Shown: positions 1 to 11,827 of the stretch, piece after piece
Numbering within the stretch: position 1 is the stretch's first letter
How the letters are laid out: every line of letters begins with the position of its first letter
Notes under the pieces: model-generated
What the model was told of the DNA's origin: nothing
Database searches by the model: none
Seen by the model: the letters and a program-made list of their open reading frames with translations, nothing else
Program-made: the position numbers and the translations under genes
Assembly (NCBI GenBank): GCA_039802265.1
Contig: JBDRWI010000064.1
Coordinates: 1 to 12,311, forward strand
DNA from: a candidate division WOR-3 bacterium
GTDB lineage: Bacteria; Hydrothermota; Tepidihabitantia; SM23-42; JAOAFX01
Reading direction: 5' to 3'
DNA: 12,311 nucleotides

Positions 1-1061
1 TCATTTTCTATAGAATGTATCAAATGATGTAGCACCCTGCCACCTTCACACATACCTGAAGCAGATATAATAATCATTGGGCCTGTTTTCTCATTCAATT
101 TTTTTGAACCTTCCTGGTCTTTTATGTATGTGATGCCCGGAAAATCAAATGGTTCTTCTTTAAGAAACTTTTCATAGGTCTCTTTATCAAAACACTCTGG
201 ATGTCTTGAAAAGACTTCGGTCACACTCGTTGCCAGTGGACTGTCCACATATATGGGAATATTTTTTAATACGCCTTGTTGGTACAATCTTTTTAGCATC
301 GTAACCAGAACCTGGGTTCTTTCCACTGCAAATGCCGGAATGATTATTTTACTCTTTTTTTGTTTACCTTCAAGGATTATATCTTTTAATTCAGTGGTCA
401 TCTGTTCAAATGAACTATGGACCCTGCTTCCATAGGTAGATTCAAGTATTAGATAATCAATATCCCGGGGAATCTCTGGGTCTTTGATTATCGGCATATT
501 CTTCCTTCCCAGATCACCGCTGAAAAGAATCCGCTTCCCATCAAACTCAATCAAAACTTGTGCGGAACCAAGGATATGTCCTGCATCATAAAATGTTATA
601 GATACACCATCAATCGGTTCAAATTCATTATTGTAGTTAATTGCTTTAAAATATCTTAATGACTCTTCTGCATCTTCTACTGTGTAAAGTGGTTCTTTTG
701 TTGGCAAACCTGCCTTGCGTTGTTTTTTATTAAAGTATGCAATATCGTTCTCCTGGAGATGGGCAGAGTCAAGCAGCAAAAGTTCTGCAATATCTTTTGT
801 TGCTGGTGTGCAATAGATTTCTCCATTAAAATTCTTTTTCACAAGTGTCGGTAGATTGCCTGAATGGTCAAGGTGCGCATGGGAAAGCAGAACACATCTT
901 ATTTCTTTCGGTTTAAAGGGAAATGTGCGATTTATCCTTTCTGCCTCAGCCCGGTGCCCCTGATAAAGTCCGCATTCTATCAAGAATTTCTGCTTTTTAT
1001 ACTCAAATAGATGCATTGAACCGGTTACGGTCCTTGTTGCACCAATGAATGTTATTTCCAT
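1..1061 (-). CDS. MBL-fold metallo-hydrolase, beta-CASP RNase family (Ysh1/TTHA0252-like); 3' end lies outside the window
   Basis: Not in the ORF track; translated by hand from ATG at 1061: MEITFIGATRTVTGSMHLFEY..LIECGLYQG..LLSHAHLDHSGNLP (HxHxDH), later DAGHILGSA, FSGDLG, ILESTYG, IIIPAFAVERTQ and IISASGMCEGGRVLHHL. Confidence 0.93.
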   Translation of the reverse strand, partial: MEITFIGATRTVTGSMHLFEYKKQKFLIECGLYQGHRAEAERINRTFPFKPKEIRCVLLSHAHLDHSGNLPTLVKKNFNGEIYCTPATKDIAELLLLDSAHLQENDIAYFNKKQRKAGLPTKEPLYTVEDAEESLRYFKAINYNNEFEPIDGVSITFYDAGHILGSAQVLIEFDGKRILFSGDLGRKNMPIIKDPEIPRDIDYLILESTYGSRVHSSFEQMTTELKDIILEGKQKKSKIIIPAFAVERTQVLVTMLKRLYQQGVLKNIPIYVDSPLATSVTEVFSRHPECFDKETYEKFLKEEPFDFPGITYIKDQEGSKKLNEKTGPMIIISASGMCEGGRVLHHLIHSIEN

Positions 1062-1232: not shown

Positions 1233-4200
1233 TTATTTTAATAGTAATGCCTTTTCTACTTGAGTGAAATTTTCGGTTTGCAATTGGATGAAATAAATCC
1301 CCGCAGGCAATCGGCGACCGAAATTATCAGTGCCATCCCAGATGATTTGGTCTGATTGTCTGATGGTCTCATGGTCCCATTGTCTAACTACTCTCCCGGT
1401 TGCATCGTAAATATGCAAAGTAGCGAGTAGCGAGTACCGAGTAGCGAGATTGGAATTTATTTCGGATTTCGAATTTGGGATTTCGAATTTAATTGTAAGG
1501 CGATTCCTGGATGGATTGGGCATTAGGGATATACCTAACTGGCCGAAGGTCAATGCCTGCTCGTTTTCTTCGATACCAACCTGTTGAATACAACCGAAGA
1601 AGTGCATAATGCTATCCAATAAAATTGCACGCCTGGAAACCCCACTGCCATCAGTCAATAACCCCAATTCAAATGATGTTCCAACTGTCCTGGAATTCCC
1701 AAATCCATAATTTGCTACACCACAGTCATAATTATTGTCCTGGTCACGGAAGATTAGGAATGCTCCACCACCGGAAGGACTTATGTGATCCATCAAATTG
1801 TTTTCTCCACTATAGTTAAAAACCATTCCGGCAGTAAATGTGCCCCATTGTCCGGCAACAGGCCCCATATCGTCAATACCATCAGCAGTGGCATTTATTC
1901 CAAATAGGGAACAGAAATTATAACCACCAATCATTGGGTCGTAGTACCAGACATCGCCTCCTTCAAGATAAACTTTTCCGTTTTGGAAGAGTAGGTAATT
2001 GTATAACTGTGTGGCTTCAGTGGTACCATTATATATTATATAGTTATTTGGCCATACTCCAAGACATACAAAAACTGATTGATAAAGAGTCAAATCACCT
2101 GTTAGGGTTGTTCCATAATCTCCTATGTAGCCGAGCGAGGTCAATATTGAATGCATATTCTGTCCGGGGGATGGCGTTGGTTCAGGATTCCATAAATAGT
2201 AATGTTTTCGTCCGAGCATCAAACTAAAATTTATGGTGGTGGAGTAAACTCCCGAGGTAATTAAAACCTGAAAGTTAATCATTGTTCCCTGTGGGGCATT
2301 GGAAGCAACCGTTACCGTAAATGGGTCAGAATTATTGTTTGCGGTTGCCATCGGTGGGACATTTCCAAAACTGCCATCTGCATCATTTATTGTTACATAA
2401 GGTGAGGTTTCTGTTAATACACCGATTACATTATTCGCTGTTGCGCTTCCTTCGTTTTTTATTGTGAGTATTAAATTTGCAGTCTCTCCGGGGTCCAATC
2501 TTCCGTTATTATTTCCTCCAACAACCGCCACTGACTGATAAACTATTACCGGCGCATAAACCATCAGAGAAAATTGAGATGTCCAGGTAGAATCTAAGTT
2601 GTCTTTGCAAACCAAGGTCAAGTTAATATTGTAACCGTTCGGACAATTATTTGCTACCTGTAAATCATATCCATTAGAACCGGTATATGCAGAATCACCG
2701 GGAACAATATTCCCGAACGATTTAATTGTATCAGAAATTGAGACATAGGATTCTGTTTCTCGCAATATCCCTATGACATTGCTTGCCTGAGCATTACCAA
2801 AGTTTTTTACCCATAGAGGTAGCTCAACAGATTCTCCCGGATTTAGGATTCCATCATTATTTCCGCCTGGTATCGGGTCGCTGATTGTATTCTTTAGATA
2901 CATCACCATCGCATAATTGCTCATCAGAACCTGTATTGTTCCCTCAAAAGGATAGTAATTGGGGGCAGTAACTGTAATATCCATCGTTCCAGGCGATGTT
3001 GGAGCAACATTCAAAGTAACCGTTCCTGAGGTATTGGTATAACCATAGGCGTAGGTCTCGTTACCCTTTTGAAGACAAACAAGGGCATTGGAGATTGGAG
3101 TACCGTTATGCATTACAATTACATTCACATTTTGATTTCCGACTTGTAATACTGCTGGATATGAGACAGAGAGATTTGCTGGAACCTTTGTCCACAATGG
3201 TAATTCAGGGTCACCCAGGAGATTCAATTCATACAAACACCAACGGGTAAATGTATATTGATTTCCCCAATCTGCATAAGGAACCCAGGCATCTTTTGCA
3301 GCCGCAAGAACCTGCCCCATCTTATATAACCCACCCTGAAATATTTTTGCAAAATATGTAGTATCAAGACGCTCTGAAGGACCGGGGACATATTGACCAT
3401 TAACAATAGCTCCCCAGCCATAGCGAGAGTTAAACATTACACCGAGCAAACCGCCACCAGTACGATTTATCAGGTGTTCAGCAAAACAATCACCACCGGG
3501 TGTCTCATCCCAGGCACCCGTGAAACAGGCAATGGAAATAGCAATGCCCTGTTTATTACCATTAGTTAGTCCATCCGCATCGCTGGATGTTAGATAGGGT
3601 GGGAAAATACCACCTTGGTGCATATAGATTCCATTTTCGTTGCCATGCCCCTCCCAGGCTCCCATACCATAACCAACATTCATTGAATCAATCATTCTTT
3701 GTCTTGATAAAGTTCCATTTCGTTCATATAACTTTGCGTCAAACCAGGGTGGTGTTGTTGTTATTCTTGCAATTGAATCTTGCATTGGTCTTTCGTCATA
3801 ACTTGGCCACAAAATTGCTGTAGGTAAAAGCATCTTCGTTAGATAACTTGTTGGTGGATTTTTTTCATAAGTCAATATTTTATATACGAAATTCTGGACC
3901 TGGGAAATTGTATAAACTGATGCCCTTCCTACATAGACATCGCTGTACATATCAGCATTATCCGTAATTTCGCCATAAGTGTGATTGCCGTTGGCATCCC
4001 AGCTTCCGCTTAAACCGGCAAAATATAAATCACAGGGAATGCTGTCTTCATCATAGTAACACCATGCATATGAGGTAGTATACCAACAACTCCTTTCAGG
4101 AACAAGGTTCTGACCCGAGGTCTTATGATCTGCAGAACCACCAAGCAAGACCCAGATGGTGCCCCAGGTATTTTTCGCATCAATGATAAAATTTCGTAAC

Positions 4201-5030
4201 TTCTCTGGCAAATCATATCCAGAGTAAGTGTTACCGATCCATGAGATCTGTACTACTTTTGTCGGTATACCCTTTTTGGTCTTCCAATCAGCAAGACGCT
4301 GGAAAATTGTATCAAAGGCAATTGCGCCACTGATGATTACATACTTATAGTCACCGGAGGGTAATATCCGAGAAGGCGACTTTCCATTGACATGGGGTGC
4401 AAAAATATCAACCATCTCGGGATTGGCAACAAAAGTGCGCACATCTTCGCCAAAAATTCTTTGTTGCTCAGCTGTAGGAACTGTATTATCAACTCGGTTT
4501 TCAAAATATTTTAACCTATAGGTTAGCCGGGTCAAAAGTCTAAGTCTGCCATCAAGGGGAATGTATTCTACGGGGTTTATTTCGATGTGGGCAATTTGGT
4601 AGCCACAGAGGGAACCGACACCGATAAGTTTTAATTTTGCGTTCGGATAGATTCTGTTTGAATTATAAATCTCTTTTTTAGGTTCAAAAAATTTTGGAAT
4701 AAAGACTTTGTTTGGCATCGGTAGAGGAACATCTGGCTGATATGGATATATTTTGTAGTTTCCCTTCAACTCAATTACTTCTTCAGAAACAATCTCTACA
4801 CTTGCTGGAACGGCACCAGCAGGTATCAAAACTGCCTGTATCAATTTTGGTAGTCTTGGTTCGCCCGGTTGATTTGCGATTGCAATACAGCCTTTTAACT
4901 CAATCACATCATAGTCCTGTATCCTGGTTATGACTAAATCATCTGGTAAGAATTCTACATTCTGTATTATTTCACCAGCCCAGAAAATATTCATCGACAC
5001 AAACGTAAAAAAAACAATTATCTGCCTCAT
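1233..5030 (-). CDS. Gingipain-family (C25) cysteine peptidase: signal peptide, propeptide, catalytic domain, C25_C Ig domain, two tandem Ig-like repeats, alpha/beta domain, T9SS/FlgD-Ig C-terminal domain
   Basis: Propeptide GEPRLP; motifs LADWKTKKG, WVLLGG, CDLYFAGL, DVYVGR; catalytic EGHG (His462) and SIACFTG (Cys502); LNLLGDPEL; C-terminal PNP..IYDATGRVV..WDGTD..GRRLPAGIYF..KALLLK; SD AGGAG at 5037-5041. Confidence 0.93.
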   Translation of the reverse strand: MRQIIVFFTFVSMNIFWAGEIIQNVEFLPDDLVITRIQDYDVIELKGCIAIANQPGEPRLPKLIQAVLIPAGAVPASVEIVSEEVIELKGNYKIYPYQPDVPLPMPNKVFIPKFFEPKKEIYNSNRIYPNAKLKLIGVGSLCGYQIAHIEINPVEYIPLDGRLRLLTRLTYRLKYFENRVDNTVPTAEQQRIFGEDVRTFVANPEMVDIFAPHVNGKSPSRILPSGDYKYVIISGAIAFDTIFQRLADWKTKKGIPTKVVQISWIGNTYSGYDLPEKLRNFIIDAKNTWGTIWVLLGGSADHKTSGQNLVPERSCWYTTSYAWCYYDEDSIPCDLYFAGLSGSWDANGNHTYGEITDNADMYSDVYVGRASVYTISQVQNFVYKILTYEKNPPTSYLTKMLLPTAILWPSYDERPMQDSIARITTTPPWFDAKLYERNGTLSRQRMIDSMNVGYGMGAWEGHGNENGIYMHQGGIFPPYLTSSDADGLTNGNKQGIAISIACFTGAWDETPGGDCFAEHLINRTGGGLLGVMFNSRYGWGAIVNGQYVPGPSERLDTTYFAKIFQGGLYKMGQVLAAAKDAWVPYADWGNQYTFTRWCLYELNLLGDPELPLWTKVPANLSVSYPAVLQVGNQNVNVIVMHNGTPISNALVCLQKGNETYAYGYTNTSGTVTLNVAPTSPGTMDITVTAPNYYPFEGTIQVLMSNYAMVMYLKNTISDPIPGGNNDGILNPGESVELPLWVKNFGNAQASNVIGILRETESYVSISDTIKSFGNIVPGDSAYTGSNGYDLQVANNCPNGYNINLTLVCKDNLDSTWTSQFSLMVYAPVIVYQSVAVVGGNNNGRLDPGETANLILTIKNEGSATANNVIGVLTETSPYVTINDADGSFGNVPPMATANNNSDPFTVTVASNAPQGTMINFQVLITSGVYSTTINFSLMLGRKHYYLWNPEPTPSPGQNMHSILTSLGYIGDYGTTLTGDLTLYQSVFVCLGVWPNNYIIYNGTTEATQLYNYLLFQNGKVYLEGGDVWYYDPMIGGYNFCSLFGINATADGIDDMGPVAGQWGTFTAGMVFNYSGENNLMDHISPSGGGAFLIFRDQDNNYDCGVANYGFGNSRTVGTSFELGLLTDGSGVSRRAILLDSIMHFFGCIQQVGIEENEQALTFGQLGISLMPNPSRNRLTIKFEIPNSKSEINSNLATRYSLLATLHIYDATGRVVRQWDHETIRQSDQIIWDGTDNFGRRLPAGIYFIQLQTENFTQVEKALLLK
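1348..1387. repeat. five degenerate 8-nt tandem repeats inside the C25 C-terminal domain
   Basis: tggtctga ttgtctga tggtctca tggtccca ttgtctaa. Confidence 0.75.
1419..1490. repeat. two 7-nt tandem repeat tracts inside the C25 C-terminal domain
   Basis: agtagcg agtagcg agtaccg agtagcg (1419-1446) and atttcgg atttcga atttggg atttcga attt (1459-1490). Confidence 0.8.
2215..2900 (-). repeat. tandem duplicated ~120-aa Ig-like (CARDB-like) domain in the C25 protein
   Basis: GGNNDGILNPGESVELPLWVKNFG..ASNVIGILRETESYVSISD..SFGNIVPG versus GGNNNGRLDPGETANLILTIKNEG..ANNVIGVLTETSPYVTIND..SFGNVPP; period about 350-360 nt. Confidence 0.85.
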
Positions 5031-5174: not shown

Positions 5175-7109
5175 TTACTTTATTTTGATTACCTTTTTAC
5201 TTACCTGCTTTGTGCCTAAACTCATTTCTACAAAATAAATCCCGGCCGGCAATCGGCGACCGAGATTATCAGTGCCATCCCACAGAATTGATGATTGGTA
5301 ATCGGTTAAATGGTTAAATTGTTTTACCAGTCGGCCGGTTATATCATAGATTGCAAGACCAAAGCCTTGCCCTACATTTTCTGCATAGTGCATAGTACTT
5401 AGTGCATAGTGGAACACGCATTGATTCCTGAACGGATTAGGAAAGACCCAAAGTTTCAGATTATCATTTTCAAACTGGGGATTTGATATTTCAGTGATTT
5501 CGGTCAACTCAAAATATTTCACCTCAGCCCGGATGTTGAAGTTATAACAGGTTCCATTATCCAGTGCCTCTTCCCAGTCATTACCATTAAGTGAAACATA
5601 GGAGCGGTGTGCGGACCAGTTTCCATTGTCAACGCCAATTGGATAATAGGCATTTTCAGTGTAGACAACCAACCATAGGTCTCTTTTCTGTTCTATTGCC
5701 AACGGCGAAGCAAGTTCAATGTAATTCCAGCAGTGGTGGGAGATTCCTGATTGAGAGTAAATGATGTTTTTGGGCATCAAATATTCATCTGTATCATAGA
5801 TATAAATTTGATAATTAAATTCATGATTAAAGAATGCCAAAATCCCGGTCAGAGTGCAGGGCTGGGCAAAAGAAAATCGCACACCTGCATAAAATGGCGG
5901 CTCATCCGGATAACCCCAGAATGAATAGGGAGCACCGTCGTATTTTATTGTATCAATGAATGTCCAGTTATTAATTCCACCGTATATCCCCATTGAATCA
6001 TTATACATATACCCTTTAAGATATTCATCCCATTTAGTAAATTCACATACCTCAAGATTGGAGTAGGAATTATCATAATACGATGGCTTTGTAGGATGGT
6101 ATATTGAGATTCCGTAGGCATTCGCATAATTATTATTGCTCGCCTTTACCACATCATTGACACTATTCATAACCATATCCGCAGTGTTCTTCAAATAGTC
6201 AGGCACATTTGCCAGTTTTATTCTTCGGGCAAAGTCATAAAGGTCAATGTGGTAATATTCATAAAAATTCTGAGTTGCTGAGCGGACGGAATTTATAGTG
6301 TTGGTGTAGCCCTGGTCTTTTGCCCGCATCAGTTCAAGGGCAAATGTGTCAATGCTGTGGTTGAGGGTGTTAATTATTGATAGGTCAACAGCCGAGAGGG
6401 TAGGTTGTTCAGTACTACTTACTATGCTCGTTGCCAGTTCCACCGCATTCATTGAAGAATTGGTGACGAGGTCGTCAAGGAATCCGGTATAATACCAGCC
6501 ATCAGCCGGTTCGGTCTCTTCTGAACCAACCATACAGGTTGCATAGGGAGACGCATTTACCATTACTTCCCACATCTGCATAAGACAGGCATCAAAACCC
6601 AACACATCCACATGACCGATTTGAAAGAGTGCCTGTTTCAATTCACCCCGGGATACCGAGATTTCGTTCCCGCTTGATTCGTCATAGGAAACTCCCCTTA
6701 CGGGTACCATGGAATCTCCTATTCCCCGCCAGCCATCGCCATGATTCCAGATTATAAGTAAATAATGATTTGCCGGAAAGTTATTCATTGCCCATAGTGC
6801 GAAATTTGAAAGTGTGGTTGGGTCACCCATATCCACTTCACCCAGGTCTTCAAGTAACTGGGAATTTATTGTGTTGATGTCATTATCATGAATAACATAA
6901 TACCTTCTACAGGTCGTCCAGTCGCCATTTGAATTGTTATAGCCAATAGCCCGGTCAATCTGGACAACAATATTAACATCTGGTGAAGAGCCAACAACCT
7001 CCATCTCATTGAAGTCTTTAATTCCATAGGTCTCAAGATTGTTGTCGGCATTTAGATAGACCATCACGGTCCACTGAGTACCAAGTAAGAAAAGCAATAG
7101 TTCCATCAT
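5175..7109 (-). CDS. Clostripain-family (C11) cysteine peptidase with a beta-sandwich accessory domain and T9SS/FlgD-Ig C-terminal domain
   Basis: WTVMVYLNADNNLE, VNIVVQIDR, EVDMGDP..L..F; catalytic WNHGDGW (His123) and GFDACLM (Cys175); VGSEETEP; IDLYDFA; GISIY; C-terminal FPNPF..IYDITGRLVK..WDGTD..GRRLPAGIYF..KKVIKIK; SD AGGAGG at 7115-7120. Confidence 0.93.
   Translation of the reverse strand: MMELLLFLLGTQWTVMVYLNADNNLETYGIKDFNEMEVVGSSPDVNIVVQIDRAIGYNNSNGDWTTCRRYYVIHDNDINTINSQLLEDLGEVDMGDPTTLSNFALWAMNNFPANHYLLIIWNHGDGWRGIGDSMVPVRGVSYDESSGNEISVSRGELKQALFQIGHVDVLGFDACLMQMWEVMVNASPYATCMVGSEETEPADGWYYTGFLDDLVTNSSMNAVELATSIVSSTEQPTLSAVDLSIINTLNHSIDTFALELMRAKDQGYTNTINSVRSATQNFYEYYHIDLYDFARRIKLANVPDYLKNTADMVMNSVNDVVKASNNNYANAYGISIYHPTKPSYYDNSYSNLEVCEFTKWDEYLKGYMYNDSMGIYGGINNWTFIDTIKYDGAPYSFWGYPDEPPFYAGVRFSFAQPCTLTGILAFFNHEFNYQIYIYDTDEYLMPKNIIYSQSGISHHCWNYIELASPLAIEQKRDLWLVVYTENAYYPIGVDNGNWSAHRSYVSLNGNDWEEALDNGTCYNFNIRAEVKYFELTEITEISNPQFENDNLKLWVFPNPFRNQCVFHYALSTMHYAENVGQGFGLAIYDITGRLVKQFNHLTDYQSSILWDGTDNLGRRLPAGIYFVEMSLGTKQVSKKVIKIK
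5295..5326. repeat. 8-nt tandem repeats inside the C11 C-terminal domain
   Basis: ttggtaat cggttaaa tggttaaa ttgtttta. Confidence 0.65.
5353..5375 (-). repeat. GTAG-type REP-like hairpin inside the C11 coding sequence
   Basis: Minus strand GTAG-G-GCAAGGC-TTTG-GTCTTGC (7-bp stem with one G-T pair), translated as VGQGFGLA. Confidence 0.6.
5382..5409. repeat. four 7-nt tandem repeats inside the C11 C-terminal domain
   Basis: tgcatag tgcatag tacttag tgcatag. Confidence 0.8.
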
Positions 7110-7126: not shown

Positions 7127-7165
7127 ATGATGGGCTCTGGCTCCAAAAGGGCCAGAGCCCATCAT
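7127..7165. other. perfect 15-bp inverted repeat (intercistronic stem-loop; terminator, attenuator or mRNA stabiliser)
   Basis: atgatgggctctggc-tccaaaagg-gccagagcccatcat, ending 6 nt before the C11 SD on the minus strand. Confidence 0.85.
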
Positions 7166-7207: not shown

Positions 7208-9499
7208 TCATTTCATCAATATCACCTTCTCAGTCTGCTCAAAATCTCCACTCTGGAATTTGACAAAATAGATTCCAGCAGAAACCTTACGACCAGAATT
7301 GTCGTCACCATTCCAGCTCACCTGGTTAAATGGTTGAATTGTTAAATTGTTAAATTGTTTTACCAACCTGCCGGTGGCATCGTAAATACAAATAGTAGGC
7401 ACTCTGTTATTTGGTGCATAGTCCTTACTGCTTAGTGCATACTGAATCACAAGGTGATTCTGAAATGGATTGGGATAGACCCGAAGTGTAGGATTTTGAA
7501 GTTCTGATTTCGGGCTTGCGGTCTCGGTGATGCCATAACCCCAGCCGAGGTTCTGGACCATAAAGTTAAGAACATAAAATCCACCAGAGTCAGCAATAGC
7601 GTGATAGATATAAGGACTATATTCATAATAGTACTGCCAGAAGTTTAGTGTATCTGGCAGATAACCCATTGTTGCTTCAATCATCAATTCCTGACCGACT
7701 TTGAATTGATGGGTCATCTCAGCACCAATCGCAGCAGCCACTTGAAATGAAAAAGATGGGCCCCCAGGAATCTGGCCTGATAACTTGCCAACCAGATTGC
7801 CTTTTGAGTATAAAACATCCTCATGAACTTGGGTCTGGGCAAGATAGATATACCAGCCACCCTGGACGCCCTGGGTGATAGAATAGATGGGATGGTTCAC
7901 AAAGAGAAGTTCCTCGGGTGGTATTGGATAACCATTGGGGTAAACATAACCCTGGGGATAGGTTGTCACATCTCCGGGTTGTTGAATTGGAAGCAATAAT
8001 CCCTTTGGCAGATAGTCAATTGTATCTGCATAAGTGAGATAATTTTCAAGTGTCATGGGCATATTCCCTGATGCGATTGGTACCGCCATATTAATTGTAT
8101 CTTGATGCAGTGTGTCACCTAACAGATTTCTCGGGTCTAAGATTTTATAGAAGAAGCCATTGTAGTAAGTCCGCGCGGCAATGACAATATTGTGGGGATA
8201 GTTGCTTGATATCTCATACCACGAACCCCAAGCAAAGGTCTGACTCTCTTTTAGATTTCGTTTGACTCCAGCCTCAATTGAAGCCTGAATGTTTGCCTCA
8301 AAAAGACCGCCCGGGAATTTTACACCATAGCCCATCGTAGTCTGGGCGGTGATCGCAATTGTAGCATTTAAATTTTGACTCTGCTGATACTCCTCTCCAT
8401 ATCTAATTGTACATTCACCCTCAATTATGCCATTATGATAGGGAGGGAGAGAAAGCACCAAACTTGGCCAGAGTTCAGAGGAACATAGATATGGGCCACC
8501 TGTAAAAACTACCTGGGCATTGTCACCATCCCAGTCCGGGGCAGCAATTCTAAATGCATTCTGCGTGGCACTGAGGTTGAATGTTCCCTCTAATCCATCA
8601 TAATTGAAGACATCAACCTTTTCGTCATCCCTTAAAACTATGACTTCTTCGTATCTGTCGGTATCCTTGTTGCCGCACACGATGTCTATGTCTCCACGAT
8701 GCCCAATATCGATTGTTTTTATCTCATAGAATGTGCTGTCATCAATATTGTACTCATAAAAATGGAGGGCATCGGTCCAGGGCCAGCCGTTTGTCTCAAG
8801 AATGACGAGTTCATCTTGAATATCATCCCTTAAATTGCCAGCAGAGAGCGCTATGTAAGAGCCGCGCTCCTTCGGATTCAAGGAGGTGGGGAAGGACTTT
8901 TCCTTTCCGGTTTCTTCAATTAAAACTATGTTCAAATTTGACTTTCCTGAAGTGAGGTAAATAACCTCATCGTATTTATCCTTATCAATATCACCGCAGC
9001 AGATATCGTAAATACCAGTTGAGATATAGACCGCCTTTAATCGGGTAATAGAGGATGTTGTCCACTTCCACCAGAAGATACTATCCGCGGATGCGGTAAT
9101 AATTTCATATCCGGCATGGATTGAATCGTCAAAGTAATCACCAGATGTTACATACTCCATACCCGACCGGTTCAGATTAAAATTCTGCCCCTGCCACGAA
9201 GAACCATTCCACCAGCGCACATAAACTGAGTTTGAATAGACACCTATGACTTCATCATAACCTGAATGGTTAAGGTCGCCACTGGCGACATCGTAAGGAA
9301 CTGCAGATAAACTCCAAGAAGTTTTATAAGAATTGGATTCCGGCTCATAGATGTCAAAGTAACCAGTCCCGGTATTATCAATTACAACTACTTCCTCATT
9401 GCTGATGAGCCTGAAGCGTTCGCCCAAGGGTTTTGCACCAAAAATAAGAATGGTTGGTACTAATATTGTTATTAGTAATAATAATTTTTTATTCTCCAT
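7208..9499 (-). CDS. Secreted FG-GAP/VCBS-repeat beta-propeller protein with an uncharacterised beta-rich domain (two amphipathic hairpins) and T9SS/FlgD-Ig C-terminal domain, 763 aa
   Basis: Start reassigned to ATG 9499: SD AAGGAG at 9505-9510 and signal peptide MENKKLLLLITILVPTILIFG. Repeats GDLNHSGYDEVI, GDYFDD..YEII, GDIDKDKYDEVI, GNLRDDIQDELV, GNKDTDRYEEVI, PDWDGD. C-terminal YPNPF..IYDATGRLVK..WNGDDNSGRKVSAGIYF..KVILMK. Confidence 0.88.
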   Translation of the reverse strand: MENKKLLLLITILVPTILIFGAKPLGERFRLISNEEVVVIDNTGTGYFDIYEPESNSYKTSWSLSAVPYDVASGDLNHSGYDEVIGVYSNSVYVRWWNGSSWQGQNFNLNRSGMEYVTSGDYFDDSIHAGYEIITASADSIFWWKWTTSSITRLKAVYISTGIYDICCGDIDKDKYDEVIYLTSGKSNLNIVLIEETGKEKSFPTSLNPKERGSYIALSAGNLRDDIQDELVILETNGWPWTDALHFYEYNIDDSTFYEIKTIDIGHRGDIDIVCGNKDTDRYEEVIVLRDDEKVDVFNYDGLEGTFNLSATQNAFRIAAPDWDGDNAQVVFTGGPYLCSSELWPSLVLSLPPYHNGIIEGECTIRYGEEYQQSQNLNATIAITAQTTMGYGVKFPGGLFEANIQASIEAGVKRNLKESQTFAWGSWYEISSNYPHNIVIAARTYYNGFFYKILDPRNLLGDTLHQDTINMAVPIASGNMPMTLENYLTYADTIDYLPKGLLLPIQQPGDVTTYPQGYVYPNGYPIPPEELLFVNHPIYSITQGVQGGWYIYLAQTQVHEDVLYSKGNLVGKLSGQIPGGPSFSFQVAAAIGAEMTHQFKVGQELMIEATMGYLPDTLNFWQYYYEYSPYIYHAIADSGGFYVLNFMVQNLGWGYGITETASPKSELQNPTLRVYPNPFQNHLVIQYALSSKDYAPNNRVPTICIYDATGRLVKQFNNLTIQPFNQVSWNGDDNSGRKVSAGIYFVKFQSGDFEQTEKVILMK
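7323..7362. repeat. five 8-nt tandem repeats inside the propeller protein C-terminal domain
   Basis: tggttaaa tggttgaa ttgttaaa ttgttaaa ttgtttta. Confidence 0.8.
7415..7442. repeat. four degenerate 7-nt tandem repeats inside the propeller protein C-terminal domain
   Basis: tgcatag tccttac tgcttag tgcatac, same unit as 5382-5409. Confidence 0.7.
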
Positions 9500-9524: not shown

Positions 9525-9540
9525 TGCAAAAACTGTGCCC
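9525..9540 (-). promoter_or_regulatory. sigma-54 (RpoN) -24/-12 promoter for the propeller gene
   Basis: Minus strand GGGCACAGTTTTTGCA = GG(9539-9538)-N10-GC(9527-9526), matching TGGCAC-N5-TTGCW at all but the first base. Predicted +1 near 9514, just upstream of the SD. A sigma-54 activator gene is adjacent. Confidence 0.85.
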
Positions 9541-9624
9541 AAATTTTCAAAAATTACCCAAAAAACTGATGAAATTTCATAAGATTTTTAATAACCATTC
9601 TGGGATTTTAAATCTATAAAAATA

Positions 9625-9784: not shown

Positions 9785-9790
9785 AACTTG

Positions 9791-11827
9791 ATGAAAGAAT
9801 TGAGAAAACCAAAAGCAAGGGGATTGTCAAAAAAATTGCCAGAGAAGATTACCACAATGGATTATTTCAGTCTTCAACAAGAAATAATGTATTTTCACAC
9901 TCTCTTGGATATTATTTATTCGCTCAACAATATCCATGAATATGAGCGACTTCTTGAATTTATTTTGGAAAAAAGTATTTCGCTTGTAAAAGGAGATAGG
10001 GGATTATTGATGCTTTATGACGAGACAGGACAGTTAGAGTTGAAGGGTTTGAAGAATATGAAAGAAGCGGATCTTAACACCGATGATTTTTATTTTTCCA
10101 AAGATATTATAAATCAAGTGCTTTCTTCGGGAAAGCCCTATTTTATGAGGAACATCTCGCATAAAAGGGGCCAAACGCTTAGTGATTCCCTTAATTCTAT
10201 ACCGAAGATGGTTGTTTGCCTTCCGTTTTCTATCAAGAATAGGACACTGGGAGTGATATATGTTGATGCTTATTCAGCAAGAGAAATTACCAATCTTGAA
10301 GAGAACATATTAAAGGTCTTTACTGCCCAGGCAGGGATTGCGATTGAGAGTTGTCGTTTGTATGAAGTAAATATTCGTGACCCGCTCACTGGACTTTATA
10401 ATTATTCTTACCTGCGCCTCAGATTGAACGAAGAGATTGCACGGACATTAAGATATAAAAAAGAATGTCTATCTTTCGTAATTTTTGACCTTGATGATTT
10501 CAAGGTGATAAACGATTCTTATGGGTATCAATTTGCCAATACCATACTTATGAAGATTGGAGAAGTGATAAAAAAGGCAATAAGGACTTCTGATATTCCA
10601 GTGCGTTTTGGAGGTGACTCATTTGCCATTCTGATGCCTGAGACTGATATTTTTGGTGCAAAATCTGTGGCACAGAGATTGCAATCCGAGATTGCCAAAA
10701 CTGAATTTAAACTTGGAAGTAAAACTGTTCCTGTAACCGCCACTTTCGGGGTTTCTACATTTCCTGCAGAGAGACTCAAGTGTGCTGAGAATATCCTTAT
10801 TGAGGCAGAGAGTGTATTAAATATGGCACGCAAAAAAGGGCGCAATAATATTGTTTGTTTTGGTGGTGAGGTAAAGGAGAAAGAAGAGGAACTCGAAATA
10901 GTGGGGAGGTCAAAGGCAATCCAGGAGATAAAGAGATTGATAAACCGAATCGCCAGGACCGATACCACAGTCTTGATACTTGGTGAAACCGGTACCGGAA
11001 AAGAACTGGTTGCTCAACTCATTCATAAAAAAAGCTTGAGGCGGGATAAACCCTTGGTGGTGATCAACTGCGGGGCAATACCCGAAACACTATTAGAAAG
11101 TGAACTATTTGGTTATGAGAAGGGGGCGTTCACCGGTGCTTATACAAGACATATCGGGAAGTTTGAATCCGCACAGGGAGGGACATTATTTCTTGATGAG
11201 ATCGGAGATCTTTCCTTGGGTCTTCAGGTAAAGATTTTACGGGCGATAGAGCATAAAGAGGTTGACCGGTTGGGTTCCCGATTCCCAATAAAGGTGGATG
11301 TGAGGGTTATTGCATCCTCTAACAAAGACCTATTAGAAGCTATAAAGAACGGTACCTTTCGTGAGGATTTGTATTATCGTCTTAGTGTCGCTACAATCTA
11401 TATACCTCCATTGAGGGAAAGAATGGAAGATATTGAACCACTCAGTCGTTATTACCTTAATTCACTCAGTAAAAAGTATAGTCGCGCATTTAGAGGATTT
11501 ACAAAAGAGGCGATGGAGGCGATGCATCATTACCGGTGGCCCGGTAATATTCGCGAACTCATTCATCGCATTGAAAGGGCAGTAGTAATGAGCACCAATC
11601 AATATCTTACGGTTAGTGACCTTGGGCTTGAGGATGTTATACCCAAGAAAGTTATGGGACTAAAAGAGGCAAGGAATGAAGCCGAGAAGATAACATTGAC
11701 TGAAGCCCTCAATCGAAACAGATGGAACATCACCAAATCGGCACAGGAGCTTGGTATCAGTCGCAAAACCCTACGGGATTTAATTAAAAAACACGGCATT
11801 GCCAGGTCAGTTAAGATAACAAATTAA
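9791..11827 (+). CDS. sigma-54-dependent enhancer-binding protein: GAF, degenerate GGDEF, AAA+, Fis-type HTH
   Basis: GAF (GDRGLLMLYD..VVCLPF..LGVIYVD); GGDEF (RDPLTGLYN..DLDDFKVIND..RTSDIPVRFGGDSF..TATFGV); AAA+ GETGTGKE, ESELFGYEKGAFTGA, LFLDEIGD, FREDLYYRL, WPGNIREL; HTH NITKSAQELGISRKTL. ATG 9791 is preferred over TTG 9788. Confidence 0.93.
   Translation: MKELRKPKARGLSKKLPEKITTMDYFSLQQEIMYFHTLLDIIYSLNNIHEYERLLEFILEKSISLVKGDRGLLMLYDETGQLELKGLKNMKEADLNTDDFYFSKDIINQVLSSGKPYFMRNISHKRGQTLSDSLNSIPKMVVCLPFSIKNRTLGVIYVDAYSAREITNLEENILKVFTAQAGIAIESCRLYEVNIRDPLTGLYNYSYLRLRLNEEIARTLRYKKECLSFVIFDLDDFKVINDSYGYQFANTILMKIGEVIKKAIRTSDIPVRFGGDSFAILMPETDIFGAKSVAQRLQSEIAKTEFKLGSKTVPVTATFGVSTFPAERLKCAENILIEAESVLNMARKKGRNNIVCFGGEVKEKEEELEIVGRSKAIQEIKRLINRIARTDTTVLILGETGTGKELVAQLIHKKSLRRDKPLVVINCGAIPETLLESELFGYEKGAFTGAYTRHIGKFESAQGGTLFLDEIGDLSLGLQVKILRAIEHKEVDRLGSRFPIKVDVRVIASSNKDLLEAIKNGTFREDLYYRLSVATIYIPPLRERMEDIEPLSRYYLNSLSKKYSRAFRGFTKEAMEAMHHYRWPGNIRELIHRIERAVVMSTNQYLTVSDLGLEDVIPKKVMGLKEARNEAEKITLTEALNRNRWNITKSAQELGISRKTLRDLIKKHGIARSVKITN

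Follow-up and report, generated by a model that had tools for sequence, protein, structure and literature searches.

Protein P0001 from a candidate division WOR-3 bacterium is probably a secreted beta-pore former, in which two tandem aerolysin-like modules stand behind a six-bladed propeller and four strands per subunit would enter the membrane of another cell, probably a microbe. As read from its sequence, the middle of the protein carries the aerolysin signature, an amphipathic hairpin between Ser/Thr flanks, twice. Since two conserved membrane-type hairpins are predicted side by side, the protein likely makes pores as aerolysin toxins do, with four strands instead of two. Described aerolysin-type toxins have one hairpin per subunit. 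Because P0001 departs from this one-hairpin pattern of canonical aerolysins and its family gives no MACPF/CDC profile match, we class it as a tandem variant working like an aerolysin-type pore former and assign it to no named family. The domain is covered by no family model, and the family is undescribed in the searched literature. The following features lie in the window, which is the whole stretch of 12,311 nucleotides that was analysed:

5175 to 7109, minus strand: Clostripain-family (C11) protease with a type IX secretion (T9SS) tail, directly downstream of the P0001 gene (PF03415, E 3.7e-51)
7208 to 9499, minus strand: gene for the 763-aa protein P0001, laid out as signal peptide, propeller, twin-hairpin domain and T9SS tail
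7220 to 7480, minus strand: type IX secretion C-terminal sorting domain, residues 674-760 (PF18962, E 5.2e-9; TIGR04183 over cut-off)
7550 to 7864, minus strand: Unit 2, residues 546-650, with strand, Ser/Thr flank, hairpin, flank, strand and beta-hairpin
7682 to 7834, minus strand: Hairpin 2, residues 565-593, with Ser/Thr flanks (556-606), from alternation and a coevolution ladder
7865 to 8044, minus strand: conserved helix/loop connector between the units, residues 486-545, with near-invariant Y487, G509, Y514 and G523
8045 to 8521, minus strand: Unit 1, aerolysin-like module by weak colinear structure alignments, residues 327-485
8231 to 8392, minus strand: Hairpin 1, residues 381-412, with Ser/Thr flanks (370-423), from alternation, profile matches and coevolution
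Residues ~327-655, minus strand: twin-hairpin domain, the middle of the protein between propeller and T9SS tail
8522 to 9418, minus strand: FG-GAP beta-propeller, residues ~28-326, predicted to be six-bladed (PF13517, E 5.6e-7)
9437 to 9499, minus strand: likely Sec signal peptide, residues 1-21, with a basic start and hydrophobic core, read by eye from the sequence
9525 to 9541, minus strand: sigma-54 (-24/-12) promoter-like site, 42 nt before the start (2 matches versus 0.20 expected)
9788 to 11827, plus strand: divergent GAF-GGDEF-sigma54 activator, likely the regulator (domain matches)

The ATG at 9499 agrees with the starts of homologues, whose alignment to P0001 begins at residue ~22. 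In the AlphaFold model the propeller has a pLDDT mostly above 90, and its best fold matches are six-bladed propellers (nidogen, Kelch and YWTD, Z 22-23.7 over ~245 residues). The source genome encodes SprA, PorV and RpoN homologues, and a paralogue of P0001 is present on its contig C75. Between the two copies the middle domain is 89% identical and the tail 50%; the N-terminal propeller, a separate candidate binding domain, is more variable than the middle domain, at 72%. The pN of 0.067 versus a pS of 0.79 in the middle domain indicates a real gene under purifying selection. The DNA of the window also turned up in two runs from hot springs, both belonging to one study, which may represent the source sample. 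Two RNA runs yielded 0 matching reads, a count that does not bear on expression. The initial annotation could assign the ~310-aa region behind the propeller to no family, and searches agree: the domain has no Pfam match at E<=5 (Aerolysin, ETX_MTX2 and Toxin_10 included) and no NCBIfam match.

Both of the alternating segments proposed at the outset lie where they had been placed (residues 376-413, nt 8374-8261; residues 565-599, nt 7807-7703). Alternation was scored in 14-column non-overlapping windows of alignment A3, which holds 107 full-length sequences in 634 columns with the propeller included. The four best windows were 381-394 (0.83), 400-413 (0.67), 564-577 (0.64) and 581-594 (0.64); the next-best reached 0.52, and the best in the propeller 0.39. 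The maximum after column shuffling had a mean of 0.52, a 95th percentile of 0.65 and a 99th of 0.71. By this measure hairpin 1 is beyond chance on its own, and the strands of hairpin 2, taken singly, lie at about the 95th percentile. Conservation of the alternation among homologues was borne out as well, with the pattern retained in 102, 99, 94 and 85 of the 107 rows for the four strands. All full-length rows have the two conserved hairpins, and the pattern persists at 20-25% identity. Across the 107 rows, the outer hairpin faces are 78-88% hydrophobic and 1-5% charged, and on the inner faces G/S/T account for 53-65% and large hydrophobic residues for 2-5%. In P0001 itself, Gly occupies several outer positions in the first strand of hairpin 2 and makes it weaker than the other three strands. 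The four most Ser/Thr-rich windows in these rows (372-382, 413-423, 556-566 and 596-606) are the four hairpin flanks. The PGG turn noted in both segments is not conserved in the family; only about 5% of 170 rows have the second PGG, which is an insertion. Passages of PMC9363482 describe an amphipathic stem loop with Ser/Thr patches, and likewise long Ser/Thr flanks, as traits of the aerolysin type.

The two hairpins belong to two units, and Unit 2 has the same order of elements as Unit 1. This order fits the suggestion that the domain is internally duplicated, and the two halves align colinearly when their profiles are compared (global P 2e-4, against 2e-3 for the reversed comparison). Sequence does not establish it, as local profile scores between the halves were lower than those of reversed controls; self-BLAST of the domain showed no internal repeat. 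Coevolution was analysed on a shallow alignment of 170 rows (effective 141). From 132 proteins, 9 fragments were dropped, and the 123 that spanned the domain, minus a duplicate query, were joined by 48 locus translations. Each hairpin was recovered as a long antiparallel ladder (hairpin 1: 378-415, z 9.4, and 376-417; hairpin 2: 556-600, 558-598 and 560-596), together with two closing beta-hairpins. The top same-face ladder of 80,087 runs from 382-592 to 390-584, with a score of 4.01 (mean 0, sd 0.46). It remained at rank 1 without the 17 rows of the WOR-3 phylum and took ranks 1, 11, 2, 9, 32 and 1 in six half-samples. Since this strongest ladder joins the first strand of hairpin 1 with the second strand of hairpin 2, it suggests four barrel strands per subunit. 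Its residues all lie on the polar face, as would be expected of barrel neighbours judging from the sequence pattern. The ladder does not discriminate between a contact within the monomer and one in the pore. The second junction that a barrel requires, between strand b of hairpin 1 and strand a of hairpin 2, gave no ladder (best rank 324).

A search of 1.84 billion representatives with a profile built from 7 close domains returned 120 distant clusters at E<=0.001, most of them 700-750 aa long with a propeller followed by a C-terminal twin-hairpin domain. Named sources include Deltaproteobacteria and Bathyarchaeota (P0092). Two homologues, P0118 and P0126, have the twin-hairpin domain and no propeller by Pfam; P0118 carries three SLH domains, and P0126 an N-terminal hydrophobic anchor. 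A near-length protein search with the domain gave none among 955 candidates, a viral library gave no match at E<=0.001, and plasmid searches with two distant homologues gave none. In the ESM Atlas, unnamed clusters of 270-300 aa from Bacillota, Pseudomonadota and Bacteroidota scored 0.93-0.94 and may be standalone relatives. They were followed by Aerolysin, ETX_MTX2 and Monalysin clusters at 0.87-0.88, which are leads only. Fusions of FG-GAP to MACPF and to CDC domains also exist in the Atlas, which makes propeller plus pore domain a recurring design. No description of an FG-GAP and tandem-aerolysin protein was found in the literature searched, which was mostly open-access; supplementary lists of PMC8986115 and PMC13397529 could contain members.

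The genes around the family differ between clades. The largest clade, of Deltaproteobacteria type, was represented by 68 metagenome loci, retrieved with a scan pattern that selects this one clade. Among the 58 loci that extend 700 nt or more downstream, 50 encode an unnamed lipoprotein of ~420 aa directly after the gene; 36 loci reach 2,200 nt or more, and in 32 of these a Porin_O_P-like gene comes next. The lipoprotein (L058:10129-11442 and homologues, alignment A6) is conserved at ~400-440 aa, found no match in Pfam, NCBIfam or the PDB, and bears no relation to the twin-hairpin protein; it is a candidate immunity or assembly factor. The third gene of the operon (L058:11442-12578 and homologues) encodes a Porin_O_P-like outer-membrane barrel (E 2e-6 to 4e-5), possibly a dedicated export route. 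According to passages of PMC11169675, the pore-forming CDC-like toxins of Bacteroidota (BfCDCL) are encoded in an operon with a surface lipoprotein (immunity) and a porin and are activated by C11 proteases. The three-part likeness is one of analogy and not homology: BfCDCL belongs to a different fold family and is two-component, whereas the twin-hairpin protein is one chain with no CDC/MACPF signature and a partner whose immunity role is putative.

The strong conservation of the pore domain and the three-gene operon also fit a housekeeping role in the envelope. Subunits of CsgG-type channels are lipoproteins that each give four strands to the barrel. By a similar logic, copies of the twin-hairpin protein could assemble by themselves in the outer membrane of the producing cell, forming a channel that works in export or uptake alongside the partner lipoprotein and the porin. 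We regard this as unlikely, though it is the foremost alternative. The pairing of the hairpins suits any barrel with four strands per subunit, the lipoprotein and the porin recur at the frequencies given above, and a loose pattern finds a lipobox-like Cys in 56 of 83 full-length distant homologues. P0001 itself lacks a lipobox and ends in a T9SS tail, and tblastn found no match to the partner lipoprotein or the porin in its source genome. The archaeal homologue P0092 and the SLH-anchored P0118 speak against such a channel, as does the absence of a CsgG Pfam match in 57 members; the propeller is a further difference from CsgG-type channels. The long Ser/Thr flanks are an aerolysin trait in the passages of PMC9363482, and those of PMC11169675 describe a toxin operon of this three-part make-up.

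Comparisons with known structures also hint at a pore former. The domain-only profile A7 (57 rows) matched 3 of 177,635 PDB sequences at E<=10, all over hairpin 1 and all at hairpin-type segments of pore formers: 7y79 (E 0.0025), 7y78 (E 0.0074) and CEL-III (E 2). With profile A4, 7y79 (Cry78Aa) was matched over hairpin 1 (E 7.7e-4) and 2ztb, which is parasporin-2, over hairpin 2 (E 0.02); its other PDB matches were mostly to the propeller. These PDB sequence matches are short and compositionally simple, and a single-sequence query with the domain gave nothing informative. Both 7Y78 and 7Y79 are Cry78Aa; passages of PMC9363482 class its C-terminal domain as aerolysin-type and describe in it Ser/Thr patches and an amphiphilic region that spans the membrane. 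One of the 57 members matched ETX_MTX2 in Pfam (E 0.011), and none matched MACPF or Thiol_cytolysin at E<=1.

AlphaFold2 modelled the propeller and domain with a pTM of 0.80 and the domain alone with 0.76. Confidence was low only at the two hairpins (pLDDT <50-60), where there is little helix; the domain as a whole has almost none, and its only helix of substantial length lies at the start of the connector. A fold search with the whole model was of no use for the domain, being swamped by propeller matches. Foldseek with the domain, the monomer comparison that the initial annotation had called for, listed 46 matches, of which 25 were beta-pore formers (21 aerolysin-type and 4 CDTb), with a best E of 5.7e-3 and TM<=0.15. 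An unbiased wide VIA search had parasporin-2 as its best match (Z 2.9, 113 residues, rmsd 5.2), and 8 of the 32 matches listed were aerolysin-type; pilin and PilZ domains scored alike to these. When the Foldseek top 1000 were re-examined with VIA, 15 of the 16 matches listed were aerolysin-type, mostly aligning model residues 5-166 with whole pore modules. We presume the aerolysin-family assignment of some of these entries. This stretch of the Unit 1 model is colinear with 6lh8 (Z 3.1, rmsd 6.2, 114 aligned), 2ztb (Z 3.0, 5.1, 112) and Dln1, all with weak scores (Z<=3.1, rmsd 5-9 A). Passages of PMC5654971 define the aerolysin module by a core of five strands in which a loop is inserted between strands 2 and 3. 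From the alignment of its model to whole pore modules, Unit 1 likely has this five-strand, one-loop topology. The beta-pore-former reading of the initial annotation thus gains support from conserved amphipathicity, profile matches to pore hairpins, weak matches to aerolysin modules and the hairpin-to-hairpin ladder, and lacks a significant fold match (VIA best Z 2.9-3.1, rmsd 5-10 A). Of the two kinds of pore former then considered, the aerolysin kind is favoured and the MACPF/CDC kind is not.

The twin-hairpin protein resembles the aerolysin-like beta-pore formers (parasporin-2 2ZTB, Cry78Aa 7Y78/7Y79, BmALP 6LH8, Dln1, LSL and epsilon toxin) in its putative binding domain and in its module rich in beta structure, where strands rich in Ser/Thr flank an amphipathic stem loop. 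Unlike them, it has two covarying stem loops, an FG-GAP propeller instead of a lectin trefoil, a T9SS tail or lipoprotein anchor, no Pfam membership and matches below significance. Two membrane hairpins per subunit are the rule in CDC/MACPF proteins, and the twin-hairpin domain likewise has two membrane-type hairpins.

One tandem aerolysin case, botulinum HA70/HA3, was found in the searched literature, and its pore function is lost. According to passages of PMC12383247, each HA70 chain has tandem D1-D2 aerolysin-like units, each giving two strands to the inner barrel, and the protein is non-toxic, forms no pores and lacks the alternating pattern. P0001 could similarly be a scaffold that does not insert, acting as a prepore ring or as a surface adhesin that displays propellers. 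HA70/HA3 appears weakly in the fold search (Z only 2.2-2.4), no sequence similarity to the twin-hairpin domain was found, and some homologues bear adhesin-like extras (LamG, Ig, NEW3, SLH). We judge such a scaffold improbable, since the family keeps both alternating hairpins at 20-25% identity whereas HA70, in the same source, has lost the alternation. MACPF/CDC domains have a bent four-stranded sheet and store their hairpins as helical bundles. An unrelated beta fold (a long soluble sheet, a filament or a MACPF/gasdermin-like two-hairpin domain) with a merely compositional likeness to aerolysin is just as improbable: no match exceeds Z 3.1, pilin and PilZ domains score alike and FG-GAP fusions to MACPF and CDC are found, yet Unit 1 can be aligned over its whole length with several aerolysin modules that are independent of one another, the model has almost no helix, and the 57 members lack MACPF and Thiol_cytolysin matches. 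No MACPF, CDC, gasdermin or CsgG chain is among the fold matches listed for the domain, an absence that is still compatible with such folds.

Within the WOR-3 phylum the gene is patchy, occurring in 6 of 271 genomes at 7 loci, on which single-protein and profile searches agree; the 7 loci are kin and not independent. The next gene encodes a T9SS-tailed protease in all 7, a clostripain in 5 and an MXAN_6640-type metalloprotease in 2 (one assigned by NCBIfam, the other by 59% identity to the first). The adjacent C11 protease is a candidate activator. The adjacency may instead be inherited synteny, given the many secreted proteases of the source genome, which has 4 C11 (clostripain) and 12 C25 (gingipain-like) matches. 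In that genome the T9SS-type tail has far more than 100 tblastn matches, and the repertoire of secreted proteases is very large. At 1233-5030 of the window, downstream of the clostripain gene and on the same strand, lies a gingipain-family C25 protease with a propeptide and a T9SS tail. A perfect 14-bp inverted repeat with a 9-nt loop (7128-7164) separates the twin-hairpin and clostripain genes just before the ribosome-binding site; a strain in run X1 differs within the loop, and the repeat is a possible mRNA stabiliser or attenuator. The phylum loci have no immunity-like lipoprotein.

In 5 of the 7 loci the gene or its operon is preceded, at a distance of 42-58 nt, by a GG-N10-GC site, and in 5 of the 7 a GAF-GGDEF-type or related sigma-54 activator adjoins the gene. 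Such GAF-GGDEF-sigma54 activators recur beside T9SS-cargo genes (window 9788-11827; L008:4780-6708; L009:10-4394; L081:408-4106), and two of these loci have a large TPR/NTPase upstream, one with a kinase. The GGDEF motif of the window activator reads GGDSF, so it may be degenerate.

For the preferred reading, a secreted pore former, we propose the following course. The protein would be exported by the type IX system under sigma-54 control, bind its target through the more variable propeller and be activated by the adjacent protease. In the prepore, units 1 and 2 would alternate as pseudo-subunits. Both hairpins would then be released, and the Ser/Thr flanks would zipper into a long barrel with hydrophobic faces toward the lipid and Gly/Ser/Thr faces toward the lumen. 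For the Deltaproteobacteria-type clade we envisage a lipid-anchored form of the protein, with the lipoprotein encoded next to it acting as an immunity factor.

More tentatively, and at somewhat less than even odds in our view, these proteins may form a widespread single-chain 'double aerolysin' class that inserts four strands per subunit, so that a barrel of alternating unlike hairpins would take half as many subunits. The class would serve as an antibacterial weapon in myxobacteria-like lineages (with an immunity lipoprotein and a porin), in WOR-3-type bacteria (T9SS-secreted, sigma-54 controlled and protease-activated) and in archaea. Both the strand pairing predicted here and the partner lipoprotein lend themselves readily to direct testing. 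If true, a tandem protein whose hairpins are both intact would reveal the effect of duplication on the stoichiometry and symmetry of a pore, and would provide a pseudo-symmetric nanopore of natural origin, from an organism associated with hot springs. It would also add an aerolysin-type weapon to the conflict between microbes in uncultured lineages.
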